This document shows positions 18,656 to 39,489 of a DNA stretch of 64,000 bases, in pieces. Made by a program: the position numbers and the translations under genes. Source of the stretch: Acidobacteria bacterium bin61 (GTDB lineage Bacteria > Acidobacteriota > Vicinamibacteria > Marinacidobacterales > SMYC01); assembly GCA_963578475.1 (NCBI GenBank), contig CAUZCL010000003.1:27027-91026 (forward strand), given 5' to 3'. Position 1 is the stretch's first letter. Each line of letters starts with the position of its first letter. Under the pieces are notes generated by a model. It did no database searches and was not told the DNA's origin. It saw only the letters and a list, made by a program, of their open reading frames with translations.

Positions 18656-19696
18656 ATGCTCCGTGGCACCCTTTTCGCCGTTCTCGTTACTAGCATTTCC
18701 TCGACTGTTACGGGCCAAAGTCACAAAATTATTTTCGACACCGACTTTATTTTGCCGCCGGGCGATGACGGCCTCGCGCTTCTCCTCGCGCTCCAATCTC
18801 CGGAGCTCGAGATCCTCGCCATCACGACGGTCGCCGGCAACGCGAGCGTCGAGCGCGCGACCGCGGAAGTCCTGTGGCTACTCGAGTCCGTCGGGCGCAC
18901 GGAGATTCCCGTTTATCAAGGCGCGGATATGCCTTGGGTTCACGAGCGAAGCGACTTTGCCGTCGACAATTACGGGAAGTGGTACTCGAACGACGCTCCT
19001 CCCCCGCCCCCTGGCGGCCACGCGCAGAAGAAAGTCGAAAAAGAGACGGCCGTCGAGCTCCTCGTCCGTTCGGTCCTGGCAAGTCCGAACGAAATCACCA
19101 TCGTCGCGATTGGGCCGATGACGAACATCGCCACCGCCATCCGGCAAAACGCCGCCTTCTCCGAGAGCGTCCGCGAGCTCGTCATCATGGGAGGCGCGGT
19201 CGCCTCGCTCCAAGACGGCGCCGGGAACATCACGCCGAACGCCGAGTTCAATTTCTGGGTCGACCCCGAAGCGGCTCGTGTCGCCCTACGCTCCGGTATC
19301 CCCATCATGCTCTCCCCGCTCAACGTCTCGCGCAAAACCGCTTTGAGCAAAGAGTGGTACGAGAAAATGGTTGCCTCGAACACGGCCATAACACGGCTCC
19401 TGAGGATGACGATGGGGCCGAGGTTCGAGCGCGATCCGGATCGCGTCTGGCTCATGTACGACCAAGTCGCCGTGGGAAGTTTGATCGACCCGACGCTCGT
19501 TGTGACCGAAGAGCTTTTCGTCGACGTCGACGATAACCGAGGCGTGAGCTATGGGACCTCCGTGGGCGGCACCGAGGTTTGGCCAGGCGCCGAAGGCGCC
19601 CAAAAAATAAAAGTTCAGCATGAACTCGACTGGCGCCGTTTCATAGAGATGTTCGTCGAAAGAATGAACGCGCCCGTCAGGGCTCGAACCCATTAA
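18656..19696 (+). CDS. Inosine-uridine-preferring nucleoside hydrolase family protein (secreted)
   Basis: In-frame ATG at 18656 (MLRGTLFAVLVTSISS signal). IIFDTDFILPPGDDGLALLLAL contains the DxDxxxDD nucleoside hydrolase fingerprint. Confidence 0.8.
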   Translation: MLRGTLFAVLVTSISSTVTGQSHKIIFDTDFILPPGDDGLALLLALQSPELEILAITTVAGNASVERATAEVLWLLESVGRTEIPVYQGADMPWVHERSDFAVDNYGKWYSNDAPPPPPGGHAQKKVEKETAVELLVRSVLASPNEITIVAIGPMTNIATAIRQNAAFSESVRELVIMGGAVASLQDGAGNITPNAEFNFWVDPEAARVALRSGIPIMLSPLNVSRKTALSKEWYEKMVASNTAITRLLRMTMGPRFERDPDRVWLMYDQVAVGSLIDPTLVVTEELFVDVDDNRGVSYGTSVGGTEVWPGAEGAQKIKVQHELDWRRFIEMFVERMNAPVRARTH

Positions 19697-19909
19697 TCTT
19701 TCGGTGAATCTAGGCAACCGTTGACGCAAAAACTTCGCATCCACTTACAGAGCAACCCGAAGGCACCCGAGCTCTTCCGCATGACCCGGGAAGGCTATCA
19801 ACGTCCCGATACCCCAAAGGTGAACACCTTGGACGTCGACCCGTCCCGTTGGACCATGGTGGAATTCGCGTCGCTAGGGGATAACCAACCCATCACGCGC
19901 CACTAGCGC

Positions 19910-20727
19910 TTGTCAAAGACGTCAACGCCTTGCGTCTCTACATTCTTGCCGGAACCGGAGGCGACCTTCGTGCCAACGCCGCGTCGACGACGTTCCAGTT
20001 CGCGGCATTCATTGACGACGAGGAGGACGGCGAGAACATTGGCGGCTTCACCGCACAGTGGACCCTGCCGCTCAAAAGCGGAGAACGCGTCTACGTCGCG
20101 ACCGTCCGCCATGACGAGTCCCGTCCGCCTTTCGCGTCGGCAGTTCGTGCAGCGAGCGCTCGCTGTTACCGCCGCGTTTCCTGCTTGAAGAGCCTCAGCC
20201 GTTCCGTGGAAGCTGCCGGTGCCACAAATCCGATCGTGCTGGACCGCTACGGTCCGCTTGTGCCAGATCCGCATCGAATCCTCGACTTGCCCGGAGGCTT
20301 TGGCTATCGCGTGATCTCCCGCACCGGTGACCGCATGGCCGATGGGTTGCTCGTGCCAGGTTTCCCCGACGGTATGGCCGCGTTCTCGGGGAGTGACGGC
20401 AAGGTGGCGCACGACGAGGCGCGTATGAAGCGCTTCGAACGTGAAGCTCATGTGCTCGCCTCGCTCAATCATCCGAACATCGTAGCGATCTACGGACTCG
20501 AGGACGTGGACGGGGTTCGCGCACTCGTGCTCGAGCTGGTGGAAGGGCCGACGCTCGCGGAGCGGATCGCTTTAGGTCCAATGACGGCTGAAGAAGTCGT
20601 ACGTATCGCCCGACAGATGGCGGTCGGGCTCGAGGCGGCGCACGAGAAGTCTGTGATTCATCGGGATCTGAAGCCGGCTTGCCATCACTCCAGATGGCTC
20701 TCGCATCGTATATGCGGCGACCGTTAG
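19910..20727 (+). pseudogene. Chimeric remnant: PhoX-like Tat-signal N-terminus (frameshifted) joined to an internal Hanks-type Ser/Thr kinase core fragment
   Basis: Frame 19910 gives MTSPVRLSRRQFVQRALAVTAAF (Tat motif, PhoX-like). Frame 19930 continues IVLDRYGPLVPDPHRILDLPGGFGYRVISRTGDRMADGLLVPGFPDGMAAF (PhoX/DUF839-like), then abruptly EARMKRFEREAHVLASLNHPNIVAIYG...HRDLKP (kinase subdomains II-VIb) and stops. No kinase N-lobe Gly-loop and no activation segment. Confidence 0.45.
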
Positions 20728-20864
20728 TCGTGCCGGACATCGCGCCTCAGGACGGGAGCGAGCACGAGCCGAAGCTGTCGCTTGACGGCATTCGCGGAGC
20801 GTGCCGGATGCCGGTCGTGTGGTTGCAGGCCGTGACCGGCAAAACTTCCTTATCTGTGGATACA

Positions 20865-20923
20865 CAGGTGCATTTATCTCAAGTAATACTTGAAGTTACT
20901 CTGTCCGGAACGAGTTGCATGAC
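20865..20923. repeat. Copy A of an about 58-bp imperfect direct repeat containing the 11-bp palindrome AAGTAATACTT
   Basis: caggtgcatttatCTCAAGTAATACTTgaagttactctgtccGGAACGAGTTGcatGAC. About 80% identical to copy B at 23299-23357. Lies about 80 bp upstream of the M28 peptidase start, next to an AT-rich stretch containing TTGACA. Confidence 0.45.
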
Positions 20924-21001
20924 GTCAATATCATTGCCACACGGCTTCTAGCTAATTAGAATTGACACTCTTTCCACACGGATTCAACGGATCGGAACGC
21001 A

Positions 21002-22227
21002 ATGAAAAAACCCCCGAACCTAGTTTCAGCCTGTATTTTGCTTCTCGCGCCAGCGGCACTTGCAGAAGAATCGATCCACGATATCAAAGTGGACCACTCG
21101 ATTATCTCCGCAGAGCTCGCGAACACCGCGGTACTGCTTCGCGAACGCGCGCTCATCGACAATCTCTCAGTCGACATCCTGGAATCGCTGGCCACGGAGG
21201 TCGGACCCCGCCGCATGGGCACCGACGGCGACCGGCGTGCCATCGCTTGGGCGCAGGCCAAGTTCAAGGATCTCGGTTTCGACCGCGTCTGGATAGAAAA
21301 TGACTACGTTCCGAAGCCCGGCGCCTCACGCATGGCCGCCTACGGTGAGGGAACGAAAGCGCGCGGCCGCAGACATGTCACTGCCGTGAAGCGTGGTGCC
21401 GAGGCGATTGTCATTCGCTCGGTCGGCACGGACAACCATCGCTACGCGCATACCGGCAGCGGCAACGGGTATGTCGACGGCGTGAGGAAGATACCGGCCG
21501 CCGCGTTGTCGTCTCCTGACGCCGTTCTTCTTCAGAACATGCTGAAGCGCGGCAAACCAGTGACGATGAAAATGAATCTGACATCCGAGATTACCGGTCC
21601 GACGAAAGGCGCGAATATCATTGGCGCGATCACCGGCCGACAGGATCCCGGCCACTATCTCGTGCTGGGCGCCCACGTGGGTTCCTGGGACGAAGGCACC
21701 GGTGCGCTGGATGACGGGGCGGGCGTGGCCTTGATGATGGCCGCGACCGCGTTCATCGGCCAGATGGAGCAACGGCCGAAGCGCAGTATTCGCGTGCTGC
21801 TTTTCGCTGGCGAGGAGATCGTCTTTTACGGCGTGAACGCGTACATGGAAAGACACAAGAACGAGCTCCACGAGCATCTACTGGGCGCGGAAGTCGATAG
21901 CGGCGGTGGCCGCATCCACACGCTGATTTCGGGCGTGGGCGAGCAGTCGCTGCCGGTTGTTCGCGAGATGTATAAACTCATAGCACCTTTAGTATCGCGT
22001 GGAGCGATGCTAACAACTCGAAAGGCTCATCGGACATGAGTGTGCTCGGACGAGCCGGCATGCCGGCTCTCAGTTTCATGCAGAGCTCGAACGACTATAT
22101 GAAGTATCACCACACACCCAACGACACGTTCGACAAAATCGTTCCGGAAGACATGCGCTATCTGACCGCCGGCTACGCGACGATGTTCTACCTGGCCTCC
22201 GAAATGGAAATCGACTTCAGGAAATAA
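21002..22227 (+). pseudogene. M28-family zinc aminopeptidase (secreted) with a frameshift near 21975-21995
   Basis: ORF 21002-22039 has a signal peptide and the M28 core (HVGSWDEGTGALDDGAGVA, LFAGEE). The conserved C-terminal ...GSSDMSVLGRAGMPALSF...YHHTPNDTFDKI lies in a different frame (the 22036-22227 ORF is its tail). Confidence 0.6.
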
Positions 22228-22232
22228 AGCTG

Positions 22233-23186
22233 ATGGAAAAGCGTCCAATCGGTTCTCTCGAAGTCTCCACTGTCGGTCTCGGCTGTAACAATTTCGGCCG
22301 CCGCCTCGACGAGGCCGACACGAGCAAAGTCATCCACGCCACGCTCGATGCCGGCATCAATTTCTTCGACACTGCGGATTCCTACGGTGGCACGGATAGC
22401 GAAGTATTCGTCGGCCGCTGTTTGGGCAAGCTGCGCCACGAAGTCCTCGTAGCAACGAAGTTCGGTTGGGAGCTCGACGAGGAGCGCCGGGGCGCCCACC
22501 CCGACTACGTGCGACGCGCCGTCGAAGACAGCCTCCGGCGCCTGCATACCGACTATATCGACCTCTACCAACTCCACAAGCCCGATCCGAGCGTGCCGAT
22601 CGAAGACACGCTCGGTGTACTCCAAGAGCTCGTCACCGAGGGTAAGGTCCGTGAGATCGGCTGCTCTAATTTCGCGTCGAGCGAGCTGGACGCTGCCGAA
22701 GAAGCCGCCGAGGGCGGTCCGCGATTCGTGAGCGTACAGAACGAGTACAACCTGCTGCACCGTGAGCCGGAGAAAGACGTGCTGCAGTCGTGTGAGCGGC
22801 TCGGGTTGGGTTTCGTGCCTTTCTTTCCGCTCGCTAGCGGCCTTCTCACCGGCAAATATCGCCTCGGCCAACCAGCCCCGGAAGGACGATTGACCTCGAT
22901 CGCAAGGCTTTCAGACAGGCTCAACGACGACGCTCTCACGGTGGTGGAGTCACTCGTTAGATTCGCGGAGCGGCACGGGCACTCGATTCTCGACCTCGCC
23001 TTCGGGTGGCTTCTCGCGAAACCTCGAGTCACTTCAGTGATCGCGGGTGCCATGTCGGCGGAGCAGCTGCGCCAGAACGTACGCGCCGCATCGTGGAAAT
23101 TGACGGAAGAGCTTGTCGATGAGGTCGACGAGCTCGTACCCTCCGTCGTTTCGAACGGCGTCGATGAGCTCACGGACGAGCGGTAG
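22233..23186 (+). CDS. Aldo/keto reductase family oxidoreductase
   Basis: 317 aa; MEKRPIGSLEVSTVGLGCNNFGR...DTADSYG...GKVREIGCSNF are classic AKR motifs. Confidence 0.85.
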   Translation: MEKRPIGSLEVSTVGLGCNNFGRRLDEADTSKVIHATLDAGINFFDTADSYGGTDSEVFVGRCLGKLRHEVLVATKFGWELDEERRGAHPDYVRRAVEDSLRRLHTDYIDLYQLHKPDPSVPIEDTLGVLQELVTEGKVREIGCSNFASSELDAAEEAAEGGPRFVSVQNEYNLLHREPEKDVLQSCERLGLGFVPFFPLASGLLTGKYRLGQPAPEGRLTSIARLSDRLNDDALTVVESLVRFAERHGHSILDLAFGWLLAKPRVTSVIAGAMSAEQLRQNVRAASWKLTEELVDEVDELVPSVVSNGVDELTDER

Positions 23187-23298
23187 CGGCAAGGAGTCAA
23201 CAGTGGCCGTCGCCGGCGTCCGCGCCAATGTTGGCTCTTCAAAACAGGAAGCGCTGCTCGTTCAGGGAGCCACCCAAGCCTGTGCACATGTGTGCGCT

Positions 23299-23357
23299 CT
23301 GGTGCAAGACCTCAAGTAATACTTTAAGTCACTTGGTCTGGAACGAGTTGGCCTGAC
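23299..23357. repeat. Copy B of the about 58-bp imperfect direct repeat (palindromes AAGTAATACTT and AAGTCACTT)
   Basis: ctggtgcaagacCTCAAGTAATACTTtaagtcacttggtctGGAACGAGTTGgccTGAC. Located between the AKR stop and the 3' end of the tannase pseudogene. Confidence 0.45.
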
Positions 23358-23364
23358 CTCCCCG

Positions 23365-24975
23365 CTAGTTCGAGGCTCCGATGGGCGCGACGCAGCTGAA
23401 GCTCGCGGCGTCATGCGCGCTACCCACGCCGTCGTAGCGCGCGACATTGGGATACGGACACAAAGGTCGCGATAACGTCACCGCTCCGTTCTCCTCGCGC
23501 ACGGCGACGAATGTGTCCGGCGCGACGCCGGCTTCGACCCCGTCGACGAGCGCGGTGAGCGCATCGAAGCGATCGACGCGAGCCCACTGGCACAATGGAA
23601 CATGCCGGGAACCATGACAAGGCGAAAGAAATCGTGTGGTCTCGCTCCCATCGTGTCGCCGACCTCTTCGTAATACGCCACGGTGCGAAGTGGGTTGAGC
23701 GCTGTGTCCGCCCAACCGAAATAGCTGATGAGCTTGCCGCCTCGCTCTTTGAAACGGGTGTGGTCCGGGTCGACCGCATGAGAATCTCTCGGATGGCTCC
23801 CATGCGCTCCGGCTCCTTTTCGAAATCGAACGCATTCCAATCGTCTTCTGGATCGTCCCCGGGAAACGCCATGTAACGGAAAAACGATTTCGCGAACAGC
23901 TTCTGGATCGAAGGGCTGCGCGAGCTCAATATCCAGCCGCCCCCACCACTGCTCGAACCGCGACGCGTCACACCGACCGACTCGGCCCCGAAAGGTTGTC
24001 CCGGGTAAAACTGCCCAGCGCCTCGACGCACGCCAACGTAGATGAGGCGGAGCGCTTCGACGTCGTCCTCGCTAAAACAGGTGGGGCCATTCTCATTCCC
24101 GCTGCAACAAGGAAACTCGGTCGCGGGGTCAAACGCGCAGGCGCGAGGGTCAGCGATGAGGCCGTCCTCGAGACCGTCGACGCCGTCGCATTTCGCGGTT
24201 ACGGACTTGGCAACGAGCTCGATCTTTTGAGGTCTCGCGTCGAGCTCTCTAGAGCCCTGCCGTTCCATGCATAAGAAATCATCGTGTTCGTGAAGTCCAG
24301 AACGGGCGCTCCCGCGACGATGCCGTCGAAATCTTCGTAAAAGCGCTGCGCCGATATCAACCCCTGGCGCCTGCCGGTCGAGCAGCCGTCCCAGCAGGAA
24401 TACCGAGGACCGCGCCCGTAGTAAACGTCAATGAGCTCCTTGGCGCTCAGGACGGTCAAGTGTACGGCGCGAAACGCATAGTCGATCGTCTTCTGCAAAT
24501 TGCCGTGAGCAAAGGTCGCTAGCGGCTCTGACCGACTGTCATGGTCGGTGTCGGTATAGGCCGTCGCAAAAGCATGCTGCAGCGCGCGGTCGCGGACGAG
24601 CTGGCGCCCTTCATTTTCGGGCGGCGTTCCGGCGAAGCCGCCATTCCCGTTCATGTAGAATCGCCCATTCCACACGGAGGGGAAGTTCAGCTCGAAGCGG
24701 ACCTCCGGAGGAATGACGCCCGAGACGCGACAGTGCTCTGGGACGTCGTTGTCGGCAGCGACGAGCCGTGCAGAAAGAATGGAGTAGTCGTGCGTCGTGC
24801 GAGACAGGAGTGCTTCGTAGCCCGCCGAGGCGAAATAGGAAACGTCCGCGTAACCCACGCGTGAGCTCGGAGCGTCGAGAAAACTGTAACCATTCTGCGC
24901 CCACATCGGGACTGCCGTCGTCAGAGCGACCAGGGCTACGAATTGGATCAAGCGGGAGCTGGACTGGATGGACAT
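23365..24975 (-). pseudogene. Tannase/feruloyl-esterase family alpha/beta hydrolase, disrupted by at least 3 frameshifts
   Basis: Four minus-strand ORF pieces in three frames carry consecutive parts of the family: signal peptide and YSCWDGCSTGRRQGL (24199-24975), CDGVDGLEDGLIADPRAC (23420-24268), KLISYFGWADTALNP...FFRLVMVPGMFHCASG (23478-23840), and C-terminal LCPYPNVARYDGVG...SFSC (23365-23835). Confidence 0.6.
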
Positions 24976-25166
24976 GGGAGAGTGACGATATCACGGCGAG
25001 AAACGTCGTGCCTTCACCGCTCACACGCTGCGCTGGCACGGCGGACTATACTGCTTTACCATGTAAAAAAATGGAGAGATTTGATGTTCTATGAAGTCAC
25101 TCAGTCGGATATCGATGCCCTCACGCAGGATGGTGTCGTACCCCTGCGAGGCGTTTTCGACAAAGA

Positions 25167-25991
25167 ATGGCAGCGGCCGTCACCGCTATCGTCGTCATTG
25201 GCGGCGTGCGGCGCATCGGTAAGTTCTCGGAAGCGTTCGTGCCGCTCATGTCAGCCGTGTTCATCCTGAGCGGTCTCGCGGTATTCTTCTTCAACTACGA
25301 GCGGATTCCCGAAGTCTTCGCTCTCATCTTCCGACACGCTTTCGCACCCGCGCCGGCGCTCGGGGGCTTCGCGGGCGCGGGCGTGGCCCAAGCCATCCAA
25401 GTCGGGATGTCGCGTGGGATGCTCTCGAACGAGGCCGGGCTCGGTACCGCGCCGATGGCGCATGCGACGGCGAATAACGTGCATCCCTTCCGCCAAGGCA
25501 TGTGGGGTGCTGTCGAGGTCGCGACCGACACGCTCATCATCTGCACGATCACGGCTTTTGCTGTGCTTTCGACGGGTGTTTTTTCCTCGGGCGAGACGGG
25601 CATCGAACTCGTGATTGCCGCCTTCGCTTCGGTCTTCCCCCCCGCCATCGCGGGAGGGTTTTTGTCCTTCGCGATTCTCACCTTTTGCCTCACGACGCAA
25701 ATCGCGTTCTTCTTGTATTTCGAGACGGCGATCACGAGCCTCTTCGGCGCAGGCGCCATCCGCTATTTGCGTTACGTCTATCTCATCCCAGGTGTGCTCT
25801 TTGCCGGCGTCTCGAATGTCGACCGACTCTGGGTCTTCGCCAATCTCGCGGTCGGCTCCTGCGCCATCCCTAACTTGATTGCGGTGCTCGCTCTGAGCGG
25901 CCCGTTTTTCGTTCTCATACGAGACTATGTCCGTCAGGAGAACCGCTACACGACCGCCATCATCGATCGGTCACGGGAGTATATTCAATGA
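25167..25991 (+). pseudogene. C-terminal half of an AGCS-family alanine/glycine:cation symporter; 5' half (about 200 codons) absent
   Basis: LGGFAGAGVAQAIQVGMSRGMLSNEAGLGTAPMAHATANNVHPFRQG matches the central conserved AGCS segment. Only about 190 bp separate it from the upstream divergent gene, and there is no N-terminal half in any frame. Confidence 0.55.
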
Positions 25992-37420: not shown

Positions 37421-39489
37421 GGCTCAGTCGACACCCCCATCCCTTTACGATGCTGTCCAAACCAATCCAGGATATAGAGCTGCGTTCGGATGAAGTTCGA
37501 CGGCATCGAGCTCGTTCCGTGAAATTCCTTGTTGAAGCGAAGGAGCGCGGTCTCGACGCCGAGAATCTTGAGCGCTTGGTAATACTCCTCGGTCTGGCTC
37601 ATCGGCGTGCGCAAATCGAGTTCGCCCGTCATTAGAAGGGTGGGCGTCGTGACATTCCCGACATACATGAGCGGCGAATGTTCGAGATATTTTTCGGCGT
37701 TGTCCCAAGGGTAACCGTTGAATCGGTAATAGCCCCAAAGGGTGATGTCGGCTGTTCCCGCGAAGCTCATCCAGTTCACGACGGGACAGCGCACCGCCGC
37801 CGCGGCAAAGCGATCCGTCTGGCCAATCGCCCAGCTCGACAGCACGCCACCCCCGCTACAGCCTGTGACGTAGAGCCGGTCCGCGTCTATGTAGCCTTTT
37901 TCCAGAACGTGATCGACCCCCGCCATGAGATCCTCGTGGTCAACGCTTGGATAGCCGTTGTCGATGGCGTTTCCGAAGTCGGTACCATATCCCGTGCTTC
38001 CGCGCGGGTTCGTGTACAGAAGCACGTAGTCGTTCGCGGCGTAGTTCTGAAACGAATTGTTGAAGCCGACGTTGTACATGCCGTGGGGTCCCCCATGGAT
38101 TTGGAGAATCAACGGGTAGCGTTTCGAGCTGTCGTAGCGCGGCGGTTTCACGATCCAACCCTGGATGCGCGCGGCATCCTCAGTAGAGGATTCATACCAA
38201 ATCTCTTCGACTTCGCCGAGCTCGACGCCCGCGAGCACGTCGTCGTTCACATGCGTCAGCCGTTTCATCTCGCTCGGGCGCGACATCGAGAAGGCCACGA
38301 CATCGGGCGGAACGTGAAATGAAGACCGGATGGCCACGGCCGTCCCATTCTCGGCAACGGAGCCGAGTGTGAGCATGTGCTCTCCATCCGTGAGCTGTTT
38401 CAACCCGCCATTGAGCGACGCAGAGTGCACGTTGCGAGCGCCGCGATCGTCGGCCATAAAGTAGACGGCGCTGCCGTCGGCAGACCAGACGAGCCCACGC
38501 ACGTCTCGGTCGAGCTCGGAGCAAATGTTCCGCATCGCGGTGCCATCGATATTCACGACATAGAGGTCGCTCACGCGATACGTCTGTGCGGTCCAGTCAT
38601 AGCCGGAGAACGCGACCGTCTTGCCGTCGGGCGAGACGACGGGCGAGGTCCATGGACCTCGCTTCGACGTAATGGCCGCGATGTCGCCCGAGACGATGTC
38701 GACGCGGTAGATATGGGACTCGCGATATTTCACATCCGCGTCGTCCTCCATCGCGCCGTCGAAAACGAGCGCTTTGCCATCGGGCGTCCAGTCGATGCCG
38801 GCGCCGTAATCGAGTCCGACCGCACCTCGCGAGCCCACGTGCCACTTCCCTTCCGTGAGCTGGCGCGGCGAGCCACCATCGGCGGGAACGAGGAAAAGGT
38901 GCCGATAGCCTTCCTCGAGAAAGCCGACGCGGTCTTGGCGAAAGTGCATGTTGCGGACGATGCGAGGCGTCTTGGTCCAATCGGCCCCTTCCGGCGGAGA
39001 GGGCATGGAAGGCAGGTCCCACGTCTCTTTCGCGGGAACGATCATCGTGAAGGCAATGCGGGTGCCGTCCGGCGACCAGTGCAGATCCCGCGGCGTTGTC
39101 GTGACATGCGTTACCTGCGACGTCGCGCCTTCCGCGTCCATCCACCGCACGAGTATCTGCTTCCCTTTGGGCTCGCCATCGGCCAAGTAAGCGAGACGCG
39201 TTCCGTCCGGGGACCAGCGCGGGCTCGAGCCATTGACGAGGAACCGGTTGCGCGTTCCGTCGGTGCCTACCATCCAGAGCTCTGAATCCCAGCGATCGTC
39301 GATCCGGTTCACCATCGACCGCGTATAGACCGTGCGTTTGCCGTCGGGTGAGATCTGGGGGTCGCGGACGCGCTCCCAATCGAGAATATGGTCTGCCGTG
39401 AGGCGGCCTTTACTGGCCGTTTCCTGCGCAGCAGAGGATGAGGCCAAGAAAATGCTCGCAAGCAGCCAGTACGTCGATCGACGAGTCAT
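37417..39489 (-). CDS. S9-family serine peptidase (prolyl oligopeptidase/acylaminoacyl-peptidase type) with N-terminal beta-propeller
   Basis: Internal ATG at 39489 gives the signal MTRRSTYWLLASIFLASSSAAQ. Repeated WSPDG propeller motifs. Catalytic GCSGGG (GxSxG) and C-terminal Asp/His region. The upstream in-frame extension is read-through from the NPP pseudogene. Confidence 0.85.
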   Translation of the reverse strand: MTRRSTYWLLASIFLASSSAAQETASKGRLTADHILDWERVRDPQISPDGKRTVYTRSMVNRIDDRWDSELWMVGTDGTRNRFLVNGSSPRWSPDGTRLAYLADGEPKGKQILVRWMDAEGATSQVTHVTTTPRDLHWSPDGTRIAFTMIVPAKETWDLPSMPSPPEGADWTKTPRIVRNMHFRQDRVGFLEEGYRHLFLVPADGGSPRQLTEGKWHVGSRGAVGLDYGAGIDWTPDGKALVFDGAMEDDADVKYRESHIYRVDIVSGDIAAITSKRGPWTSPVVSPDGKTVAFSGYDWTAQTYRVSDLYVVNIDGTAMRNICSELDRDVRGLVWSADGSAVYFMADDRGARNVHSASLNGGLKQLTDGEHMLTLGSVAENGTAVAIRSSFHVPPDVVAFSMSRPSEMKRLTHVNDDVLAGVELGEVEEIWYESSTEDAARIQGWIVKPPRYDSSKRYPLILQIHGGPHGMYNVGFNNSFQNYAANDYVLLYTNPRGSTGYGTDFGNAIDNGYPSVDHEDLMAGVDHVLEKGYIDADRLYVTGCSGGGVLSSWAIGQTDRFAAAAVRCPVVNWMSFAGTADITLWGYYRFNGYPWDNAEKYLEHSPLMYVGNVTTPTLLMTGELDLRTPMSQTEEYYQALKILGVETALLRFNKEFHGTSSMPSNFIRTQLYILDWFGQHRKGMGVSTEP

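Follow-up and report, generated by a model that had tools for sequence, protein, structure and literature searches.

A rare palindromic intergenic element on either side of the M28 peptidase and aldo-keto reductase genes in Candidatus Marinacidobacterales

Two imperfect direct repeats, copies A and B, lie on either side of an M28 peptidase gene and an aldo-keto reductase (AKR) gene in the window, which is the whole 64-kb stretch of DNA that was analysed. The locus raises the question of whether these repeats are the ends of a cassette, as the first-pass annotation had proposed (an insertion/excision footprint with att-like or MITE-like ends), or sites of another kind, such as the pair of operators that it had offered as a second idea. 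Comparison with relatives showed that both repeats are long-established, conserved copies of a rare intergenic palindromic element rather than the termini of a recent cassette insertion.

The repeat pair and its architecture

Repeats of about 80% identity had been described at this locus, and the global alignment of 20865-20923 with 23299-23357 agreed: 48/60 columns match (80%), with two 1-nt gaps. The repeat search delimited an ungapped stretch of 40 nt, 20878-20917 against 23311-23350 (spacing 2433), with 35/40 identical positions. Nothing similar is present elsewhere in the 64-kb window. The local score of copy A against copy B is 34, and its best score elsewhere, on either strand, is 13; the family-profile search of the window found no copy beyond A and B. 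The exact 14-mer CTCAAGTAATACTT and the perfect palindrome AAGTAATACTT, both pointed out earlier, are indeed confined to the two copies in the window (0.11 occurrences of the 14-mer expected at ≤2 mismatches), as is the 20-mer AAGTAATACTTNAAGTNACT at ≤3 mismatches (0.00 expected). The shared 3' sequence GGAACGAGTTG is also as first reported, exact and in register in both copies; taken alone at ≤1 mismatch, it was found 2 times against 1.58 expected in the window, which is not significant. The window has no further occurrence of the single half-site palindromes ACTTNAAGT, AAGTNACTT, and GCACANNTGTGC. Two more AGTATTAC sites, at 37579 and 49223, were rejected as further elements; they lie inside coding DNA, in ..KYY.. 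/ ..EYY.. codons. An independent assembly (Logan SRR9039929, L002) and the ENA contig both have this sequence, so the repeats are not an assembly artefact.

The copies are composite (Table 1) and about 60-80 nt long. A GC-rich hairpin is followed by an AT-rich 23-bp imperfect palindrome, GACCTCAAGTA-A-TACTTTAAGTC, composed of AAGT/ACTT half-sites, and then by GGAACGAGTTG. The core is AT-rich although the genome is about 60% GC. In alignment A3, the AAGT/ACTT blocks of the core vary little or not at all, and the columns that do vary are the spacers between the blocks. The copy B palindrome can be written as the array ACCT-c-AAGT-aat-ACTT-t-AAGT, followed by c-ACTT; in copy A, complementarity is perfect between the inner arms TCAAGTA/TACTTGA. 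In nearly every copy, the AT-rich core is preceded by a hairpin whose sequence varies. According to the family alignment, the copy A hairpin TATCTGTGGATACACAGGTG corresponds, in degenerate form, to the GCACAnnTGTGC palindrome in the other copies. Copy B consists of the palindrome GCACATGTGTGC (23284-23295, unique in the window), a 9-nt lineage-specific insert, the AT-rich core, and GGAACGAGTTGGCC.

Table 1. Features of the locus, with window coordinates and the evidence for each.
Feature	Position	Strand	Evidence or remark
PhoX 5' remnant, aa 1-95, one frameshift	20111..20406	+	tblastn with L092 PhoX
Ser/Thr kinase A remnant, aa 26-116 of kinase domain	20407..20679	+	Pfam Pkinase match
GC-rich hairpin on 5' side of copy A, TATCTGTGGATACACAGGTG	20851..20870	+	8-pair stem in terminator scan
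Copy A: hairpin region, AT-rich core, GGAACGAGTTG	20859..20917	+	nhmmer family profile 20859-20909, E=2.7e-11
Copy A 23-bp imperfect palindrome, TATCTCAAGTA-A-TACTTGAAGTT	20875..20897	.	sequence; half-site conservation, alignment A3
3' extension, GGAACGAGTTG	20907..20917	+	common to A, B, and their orthologues; absent from unlinked family members
Promoter-like TTGCCA-N17-TAGAAT upstream of M28	20934..20962	+	10/12 matches
M28 peptidase pseudogene	21002..22227	+	frameshift near 21990; in-frame loss
Aldo-keto reductase (AKR), domain intact	22233..23186	+	Pfam match
Spacer, putative scar of kinase B deletion	23146..23289	+	comparison with L071
Copy B	23282..23353	+	nhmmer 23282-23343, E=2.6e-17
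Copy B 23-bp imperfect palindrome, GACCTCAAGTA-A-TACTTTAAGTC	23308..23330	.	9/11 arm positions complementary
Tannase pseudogene, three frameshifts	23368..24975	-	convergent with AKR

Neighbouring genes and the origin of the pair

The flanks are those named by the first-pass annotation: a PhoX 5' fragment fused to a Ser/Thr-kinase fragment upstream of copy A, and a tannase pseudogene beyond copy B. By blastn, the PhoX remnant matches the related loci L089, L091, L092, L095, and L104, and PhoX is taken to have been the left-hand neighbour of the locus in the ancestor. A PDGSRIVY-type motif occurs in 20679-20861, a stretch that would be C-terminal debris of the kinase. The kinase A remnant has 72% amino acid identity to the L057 kinase, which lies next to copy B, versus 41-45% to other kinases of these genomes. 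A kinase or its remnant lies directly 5' of the copies in the window (20407-20679), L057 (3508-5348), L089 (8265-8340, a shorter remnant of the same kinase A before copy A), L104 (an N-terminal remnant after PhoX), and L071.

The promoter-like site upstream of M28 begins 17 nt downstream of the copy A end, and the same hexamers are conserved in L089. The TTGACA noted earlier after copy A is present at 20963-20968; TTGCCA-N17-TAGAAT is the better promoter-like match. The segment had been described as carrying a frameshifted M28 and an intact AKR. The M28 frameshift stands, and M28 has also lost 73 codons (aa 108-180) through an in-frame 219-nt deletion at 21298/21299; it is intact, with 482-489 aa, in L057, L089, L091, and L095. 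The AKR is intact in its domain only. Homology to all relatives ends at 23145, the last codons from there onwards are replaced, and the protein has 317 aa versus 307-308 aa in relatives. The order in L071 is truncated kinase B, a stretch like window 23145-23289, the element, and tannase; the AKR C-terminus in the window appears to have been replaced after deletion of kinase B. The tannase stop codon lies about 15 nt from the copy B end, and the gene is intact in L057 (537 aa).

The ancestral order would thus be PhoX-kinaseA-A-M28-AKR-kinaseB-B-tannase, with tannase on the opposite strand. Since kinases A and B are close paralogues, copies A and B probably arose from an old segmental duplication comprising a Ser/Thr kinase gene and its 3' flank. 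GGAACGAGTTG is common to A and B and is not found in the unlinked copies. After vertical inheritance within Ca. Marinacidobacterales (Acidobacteriota, class Vicinamibacteria), later deletions would have destroyed both kinases in the window lineage, so that the surviving elements look like brackets around M28-AKR. The kinase-removing deletions stop at the element edges. A duplication would also require one further loss or more (of a second M28-AKR copy), or transposition of a kinase-element unit, and the scenario rests on short kinase remnants.

Distribution and conservation in relatives

The relatives compared at the locus (Ca. Marinacidobacterales) are 84-91% identical. Complete genomes with the locus include OZ240210.1, CBDFNJ01, ERZ28763718:ctg125729 (10.4 Mb), ERZ25074053:ctg471306, and ERZ25072076:ctg246125. 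Orthologues of copy A are located between PhoX and M28 in L089 (8383-8432), L090, L091, L092, and L109; orthologues of copy B are located between AKR (or the kinase) and tannase in L033, L095, L057/L084, L071, and L046. L089 and L091 contain copy A plus the 3' half of copy B. Both copies being at orthologous positions in these relatives, the insertion/excision footprint proposed earlier finds no support. No empty site joining 20864 to 23358 was seen, and PhoX, M28, and AKR are in synteny in all relatives that have retained them. Nor is the composition of the segment distinct, with a GC content of 0.60-0.65 inside versus 0.58-0.64 outside. Alignments A1 and A2 contain no target duplication at the copies. 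The 2.4-kb segment is not a mobile cassette.

Copy B is strongly conserved. In alignment A1, which contains five orthologous sequences, it forms a 48-nt island with 44/48 columns invariant and four variable; the adjoining spacer is unalignable, and the coding flanks are 84-98% identical. The orthologue pair L035a/L107a is no better conserved than its coding flank, so strong constraint does not act on all copies. A/B gene conversion as a single tract was considered for L046 and does not fit, because its two differences from B, which are in the A state, are interleaved with B-state positions.

The element is rare, with about 1-3 copies per genome (1-2 core matches per 4-9 Mb). With the 20-nt core pattern, genuine elements were found in only 2 of the 185,579 species-representative genomes, one match being in a 9.2-Mb chromosome and two in a 4.1-Mb contig. 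The possibility raised earlier of a generic REP-like element at hundreds of sites is not supported by this genome scan. Most matches of the public scan were discarded as chance or coding matches in AT-rich genomes; further false matches were a coding motif conserved in soil contigs and the L029 match inside metH. In about 328 kb of related DNA, the family profile recovered only orthologues of A, B, and L035a, and the unlinked copies L035b, L019, and L078. At every locus that could be judged, the element is oriented like the gene upstream of it, and 0-180 nt separate its start from that gene's stop codon; copies B and L107a are between convergent genes. In L035, one small TPR-like ORF is enclosed by two copies at a distance of 660 bp from each other, and L019 adjoins an IS256-type transposase and a toxin-antitoxin pair. 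The pattern search also turned up a nearly identical palindrome in an unrelated phage contig (IMGVR_UViG_3300030098_004836), whose intergenic DNA contains it three times, a likeness that could be coincidence. Comparison of the neighbouring genes of the element-bearing loci revealed none common to all, and no candidate binding protein. A literature search on the order name (Marinacidobacterales) returned no papers.

Alternative readings and possible function

Could the copies still be site-specific recombination or nicking sites (att, attC, pdif, HUH-like) that bound an excisable or exchangeable M28-AKR module? Such a role is suggested by the direct repeats bracketing one or two genes here and in L035, by the position of L019 beside the transposase and toxin-antitoxin genes, by one L089/L091 rearrangement breakpoint that falls inside the core of B, and by the many IS and toxin-antitoxin genes of the locus in relatives, where it is a hot spot of rearrangement. 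However, no integrase, recombinase, or Rep gene was found within 10 kb of any element-bearing locus, the bracketed genes are vertically inherited, and the hallmarks of attL/attR-bounded mobile elements (an empty site, an integrase, and a differing composition) are lacking. No tRNA or tmRNA is present as an att site. L107 lacks 4.6 kb relative to L035, but the junctions are not at the elements, and a cassette reading of this second pair (L035a/b) was rejected. Integron attC sites, clusters of attC sites without an integrase, and the Acinetobacter pdif modules are similar in having imperfect palindromic direct repeats around one or two co-oriented genes, with toxin-antitoxin genes and IS elements in the neighbourhood. 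In attC sites, the R'' (RYYYAAC) and R' (GTTRRRY) boxes stand at the ends of a single imperfect hairpin. Here, GTTGGCC (B) and GTTGCAT (A) deviate from GTTRRRY, and the complementary RYYYAAC is absent upstream; such boxes are absent in L035a, L035b, and L078, and nothing comparable is conserved across the family. The XerC/D-type 11-6-11 architecture is also missing, and the bracketed genes are conserved and syntenic, unlike those of attC and pdif modules. On the minus strand of both cores, AAGTATTAC lies within an AGACC/GGTCT stem; the PCV2 Rep protein has this nonanucleotide as its nick site (PMC7826260), which recalls the rolling-circle Rep (HUH) origins of circoviruses and other CRESS-DNA viruses. 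The loop of the element is 23 nt, far larger than the 9-13 nt of Rep origins, and there is no Rep gene or iterons; the 8-mer of the Rep-like motif is also found by chance at two places in the coding DNA of the window. The likeness to Rep origins is no more than a resemblance. Taken together, a module bounded by recombination sites is very unlikely. A wider speculation, that the elements are recognition sites of a site-specific DNA-processing enzyme (a recombinase or HUH-type nuclease) delimiting exchangeable gene modules in Acidobacteria, is a long shot. If true, it would be comparable to attC cassettes and pdif modules, and it would explain the bracketing repeats here and in L035, the L089 core breakpoint, and the clustering of IS and toxin-antitoxin insertions around the locus; the palindrome of the marine phage would point to a shared protein.

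The unlinked copies at unrelated loci of relatives (L035a, L035b, L019, and L078) would also be expected if the elements were functionless, decaying remnants of a formerly mobile MITE-like or REP-like selfish repeat, with A and B as independent old insertions. The composite palindromic architecture, the degenerate 5' hairpin of copy A, and the L035a/L107a pair evolving about as fast as its flanks are in line with this. We consider it improbable, because the copy number is very low, there are no terminal inverted repeats with target duplications, copy B is an island of near-invariance, and independent insertion leaves the shared 3' extension and the paralogous kinase neighbours of A and B unexplained. 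The outer arms GGC...AGACC / GGTCT...GCC are weakly complementary, which does not suit a MITE. REP/BIME elements are mobilised by RAYT transposases. They are similarly short, imperfect extragenic palindromes, often 3' of genes, with fixed orientation and conservation within lineages; they differ in having hundreds of copies, and neither a high copy number nor a repeat-flanked RAYT (Y1) transposase was found for the element. The nearby Y1_Tnp genes in L033, L089, and L090 are ordinary IS200-type, and a REP/RAYT or IS200-derived element was rejected after the IS200 ends in L090 and L033 were seen to carry unrelated GC hairpins. The IS200 homologue look-up returned one long locus only, which lacks the element. 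A third alternative places the function in RNA: the element would be the 3' UTR of the upstream gene, whose GC hairpin and A/U-rich tract terminate transcription or protect the mRNA 3' end, like REP elements or the U-tract-poor terminators of GC-rich bacteria. An RNA 3'-end element would account for the co-orientation and the start 0-180 nt after the stop codon at least as well as a DNA site would. The convergent-gene position of B and L107a and the variable hairpin before the AT-rich core likewise agree with it, and the intrinsic-terminator scan flagged copy A, where the hairpin is followed by a T-rich tail. Intrinsic terminators resemble the element in the GC-rich hairpin after a stop codon, the A/T-rich stretch behind it, and the position between convergent genes; they differ in the U-tract, which is absent except weakly in copy A; copy B was not flagged, and most copies have the hairpin and no T-run. 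Termination does not explain the invariant, specific 23-nt sequence, and the elements were retained long after decay of the upstream kinase genes. RNAalifold predicted no consensus pairs, folding z-scores ranged from -0.5 to -2.9 with most near zero, and covariation of two candidate helices was not above shuffled controls (12 distinct sequences, hence low power). Rfam 15 gave no match at the gathering score in the whole window, and none on the element at E<=10 in 20700-23500. An RNA 3'-end element is possible, yet unlikely.

Most likely, the element is a candidate sequence-specific protein-binding site. The operator idea of the first-pass annotation is thus the preferred reading, and copies A and B are putative sites; conserved inverted half-sites with free spacers are what alignment A3 displays. 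The palindromic core would be bound by a DNA-binding protein, probably dimeric or tetrameric, that acts at gene boundaries, and selection would maintain the element for that reason. Copy A would provide a site just upstream of the M28 promoter, and copy B one that separates two convergent genes; termination of the upstream gene's transcript may also be aided by the hairpin in front of the core. Between convergent genes, copy B has no promoter for a classical operator to act on. Operators of dimeric helix-turn-helix proteins (phage CI/Cro-type, restriction-modification C-boxes) resemble the element in the 23-bp palindrome with invariant half-sites and variable spacers, in the position of copy A upstream of a promoter-like site, and in the near-identical palindrome repeated in the phage contig. 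They differ in that the element adds a hairpin and GGAACGAGTTG, its orientation is fixed to the upstream gene, copy B lacks promoter context, and no cognate regulator was found near the element copies. Other known sites were compared and rejected. By eye, GGAACGAGTTGC as a sigma-54 promoter has a GG-to-GC spacing 2 nt too short for -24/-12, and as an ECF promoter a GGAAC-to-GTC spacing of 11-12 nt instead of 16-17. The sequence fits neither dif/Xer, LexA, nor CIRCE/HAIR boxes, nor a DGR template/variable repeat, for which a reverse transcriptase is also absent nearby.

The best explanation of the locus is a vertically inherited, lineage-restricted composite element of duplication origin with a protein-bound palindromic core, a tentative reading with somewhat less than an even chance of being right. 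The attractive cassette interpretation of the brackets is wrong, and gene-bracketing repeats near rearrangement scars can be relics of old duplications with decayed intervening genes. The element is otherwise an ordinary kind of feature. It is a noncoding element, not described before and apparently maintained by selection, of an uncultured marine order of Acidobacteria that has many IS elements and pseudogenes. As such it offers a concrete target in the search for a regulator or a signal for transcript ends, in a phylum about whose regulatory DNA almost nothing is known.

The repeat pair and its distribution

In the window, a short sequence occurs twice in direct orientation (copies A and B), 2433 bp apart; the copies bracket an M28 peptidase and an aldo-keto reductase (AKR). 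The first-pass annotation had reported direct repeats of about 80% identity, and this was confirmed: 48 of 60 columns are identical at its coordinates, with two 1-nt gaps, and a repeat search gave an ungapped core (20878-20917 and 23311-23350) of 35/40 identity. The A-B local alignment score is 34; the best score of copy A elsewhere in the window is 13. The exact 14-mer said to be common to both copies was also found, at just these two sites in the window (0.11 expected), and a 20-mer core pattern with up to 3 mismatches matched only the same sites (0.00 expected). The identical sequence, including the M28 frameshift, is present in a 118-kb ENA contig and an independent Logan assembly; thus, the pair is not an assembly artefact.

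Each copy is composite, consisting of a GC-rich hairpin, an AT-rich core and GGAACGAGTTG; this last extension is common to A and B only. The annotated 11-nt palindrome AAGTAATACTT is present, but the symmetry extends further, to a 23-bp imperfect palindrome, which can be read as AAGT/ACTT half-sites in alternation. Alignment of 12 distinct family members showed that the half-sites are the invariant columns and the intervening spacers the variable ones. Both cores carry AAGTATTAC on the minus strand (20883-20890 and 23316-23323), which is identical to the Rep nick-site nonanucleotide of porcine circovirus 2 (PCV2) (PMC7826260). There is no Rep gene near the window cores, and the match would seem to be a resemblance only.

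Features of the element and the neighbouring genes
Feature	Location	Remarks
PhoX 5' fragment	20111-20406	fused to Ser/Thr-kinase fragment
Ser/Thr-kinase fragment	20407-20679	reduced to aa 26-116; copy A next
Copy A hairpin	20851-20870	degenerate stem, unlike that of B
Promoter-like TTGCCA-N17-TAGAAT	20934-20962	upstream of M28
Copy B hairpin	23284-23295	perfect palindrome GCACATGTGTGC, unique in window
Copy B core	23308-23330	23-bp imperfect palindrome GACCTCAAGTA-A-TACTTTAAGTC
Tannase	after copy B	convergent; three frameshifts
GACCTMAAGTAWTACTTTAAGTC copies	phage contig L102: 1488-1513, 2815-2839, 6314-6340	also L055

A 20-nt core pattern was scanned against 185,579 species, each represented by a single genome. 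Among the 36 matching stretches, 3 alone share the flanks of the element, one in a 9.2-Mb chromosome (L033) and two in a 4.1-Mb contig (L019, L035); all belong to Ca. Marinacidobacterales (class Vicinamibacteria). The metagenome scan added copy B orthologues (L046, L071, and L057/L084) and a new locus (L078); its other matches were rejected as chance or coding matches. Searching with a profile of the copies revealed one further, more diverged copy in L035, none beyond A and B in the 64-kb window and, across about 328 kb of related DNA, nothing but orthologues of A, B and L035a (a copy in L035). These low counts indicate that the element is rare, and not a generic REP-like repeat.

History of the locus

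As one reading of the bracketed segment, the first-pass annotation suggested a cassette or insertion footprint, which is not supported. No empty site was seen among the relatives compared, no recombinase lies within 10 kb, and the GC content of the segment equals that of its flanks. The relatives differ by many IS insertions (IS200, IS3, IS110, IS256 and IS4-type) and toxin-antitoxin modules. The PhoX-M28-AKR neighbourhood is an insertion hot spot in L089-L095, L104, L108 and L109, which have large (8-10 Mb), IS-rich genomes; IS200 lies inside PhoX, IS3 inside M28, and toxin-antitoxin-like pairs include PIN with NikA-like, Fic, and two small ORFs (L095).

Long contigs carrying AKR orthologues were compared with the window by BLAST. 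PhoX-M28-AKR is a conserved block. Copy A orthologues lie between PhoX and M28 in L089, L090, L091, L092 and L109, and L033 and L095 have a copy B orthologue in the gap from AKR to tannase. L057 has a Ser/Thr kinase, nearly complete, between AKR and copy B; in L071, a truncated kinase precedes the same spacer as is found after AKR in the window. Homology of the window AKR to all relatives ends at 23145, its last codons are non-orthologous, and it has 317 aa rather than 307-308. The next 145 nt (23145-23289) correspond to the L071 post-kinase spacer. This is a deletion scar that re-tailed AKR: kinase B was lost in the window lineage when a deletion joined the AKR 3' end to the spacer. Kinase debris also lies 5' of copy A, as 272 nt in the window and a 70-nt HRD-loop remnant in L089; L104 has an N-terminal remnant after PhoX. 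The fragment at A shares 72% protein identity with the kinase at B, and only 41-45% with other kinases of these genomes. These gene orders and remnants suggest the ancestral order PhoX-kinase A-A-M28-AKR-kinase B-B-tannase.

For the A/B pair, the best explanation is that a kinase was duplicated long ago along with its 3' flank, which would also account for the GGAACGAGTTG extension confined to the two copies. A and B separated before these genomes diverged, since a 9-nt insert in copy B of the window, L057 and L071 is absent from A and L033. In L089 and L091, copy A is present and copy B is reduced to its 3' half, starting at AAGTCACTTGG (19503-19645 and 18978-19120), with unrelated DNA on one side and the deleted tannase on the other; the breakpoint thus falls inside the AT-rich core. 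L046 (1098-1158) is 98% identical to the window, and its copy B differs at two positions, both carrying the base of copy A. With one of the two (T to G), the inner arms of the palindrome reach full complementarity, the state seen in copy A. These changes could reflect parallel change or short gene conversion.

The annotated M28 frameshift was verified near 21990. Compared with every relative, M28 is additionally missing 219 nt (73 codons) in frame, at junction 21298/21299, and both lesions were found in the independent assembly. Truncation also affects the Na:alanine symporter and PhoX, the latter with a frameshift as well. Pseudogenes are dense in this region (19900-25991; also L001); with intact versions in the relatives, this suggests that gene decay is still under way in the window lineage.

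Constraint and possible function

In five orthologous copy B sequences, only four positions vary within the 48 nt from AGACC to GAGTTGGCC; the coding flanks are 84-98% identical, the upstream spacer is unalignable, and the 15-35 nt downstream differ. The kinase-removing deletions stop at the element borders. Copy A is less conserved (the window and L089 agree at about 36/41 positions, where the region as a whole is 73% identical), and the L035a/L107a pair is conserved no better than its flank.

Rfam gave no match to the element, RNAalifold predicted no consensus pairs, and single-sequence folds were mostly no better than shuffles. Counts for two helices, the 23-nt palindrome and an alternative AGUAAU/GUCACU stem enclosed by AGACC/GGUCU, gave no covariation above shuffled controls in either case. 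The conservation is of sequence, in the pattern expected of inverted half-sites, which a dimeric or tetrameric DNA-binding protein might read. In the AT-rich phage contig L102 (IMGVR_UViG_3300030098_004836), a 23-bp palindrome, GACCTMAAGTAWTACTTTAAGTC, is found at three intergenic sites and matches the acidobacterial core at 22/24 positions; shared DNA-binding specificity or coincidence could explain this likeness. Palindromes of this kind between phage genes are usually operators, and together with the half-site pattern this favours the element as a candidate protein-binding site. L089-type relatives have kept the promoter-like sequence upstream of M28. The TTGACA noted earlier is present (20963-20968), but without a matching -10 hexamer.

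Against a protein-binding site, the analysis found no regulator, there is no promoter for copy B to act on, and every copy is co-oriented with its upstream gene and begins shortly past the stop codon. Given the latter arrangement, a role at transcript 3' ends is still considered and ranks second among the explanations. Recombination or nicking at the element is a long shot, with circumstantial support from the copies bracketing genes in the window and in L035, the single breakpoint inside a core, and the PCV2-type nonanucleotide. The L035 copies (426-476 and 1088-1139) are a second direct pair, 660 bp apart, flanking a small TPR-like ORF that lies 3' of a ThiF/rhodanese gene. The relative L107 has the first copy only (1910-1940) and lacks the next 4.6 kb; the junctions of this difference are not at elements.

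In summary, one acidobacterial order carries an undescribed palindromic element that is rare, conserved and intergenic, for which the operator role proposed earlier is a plausible candidate function.
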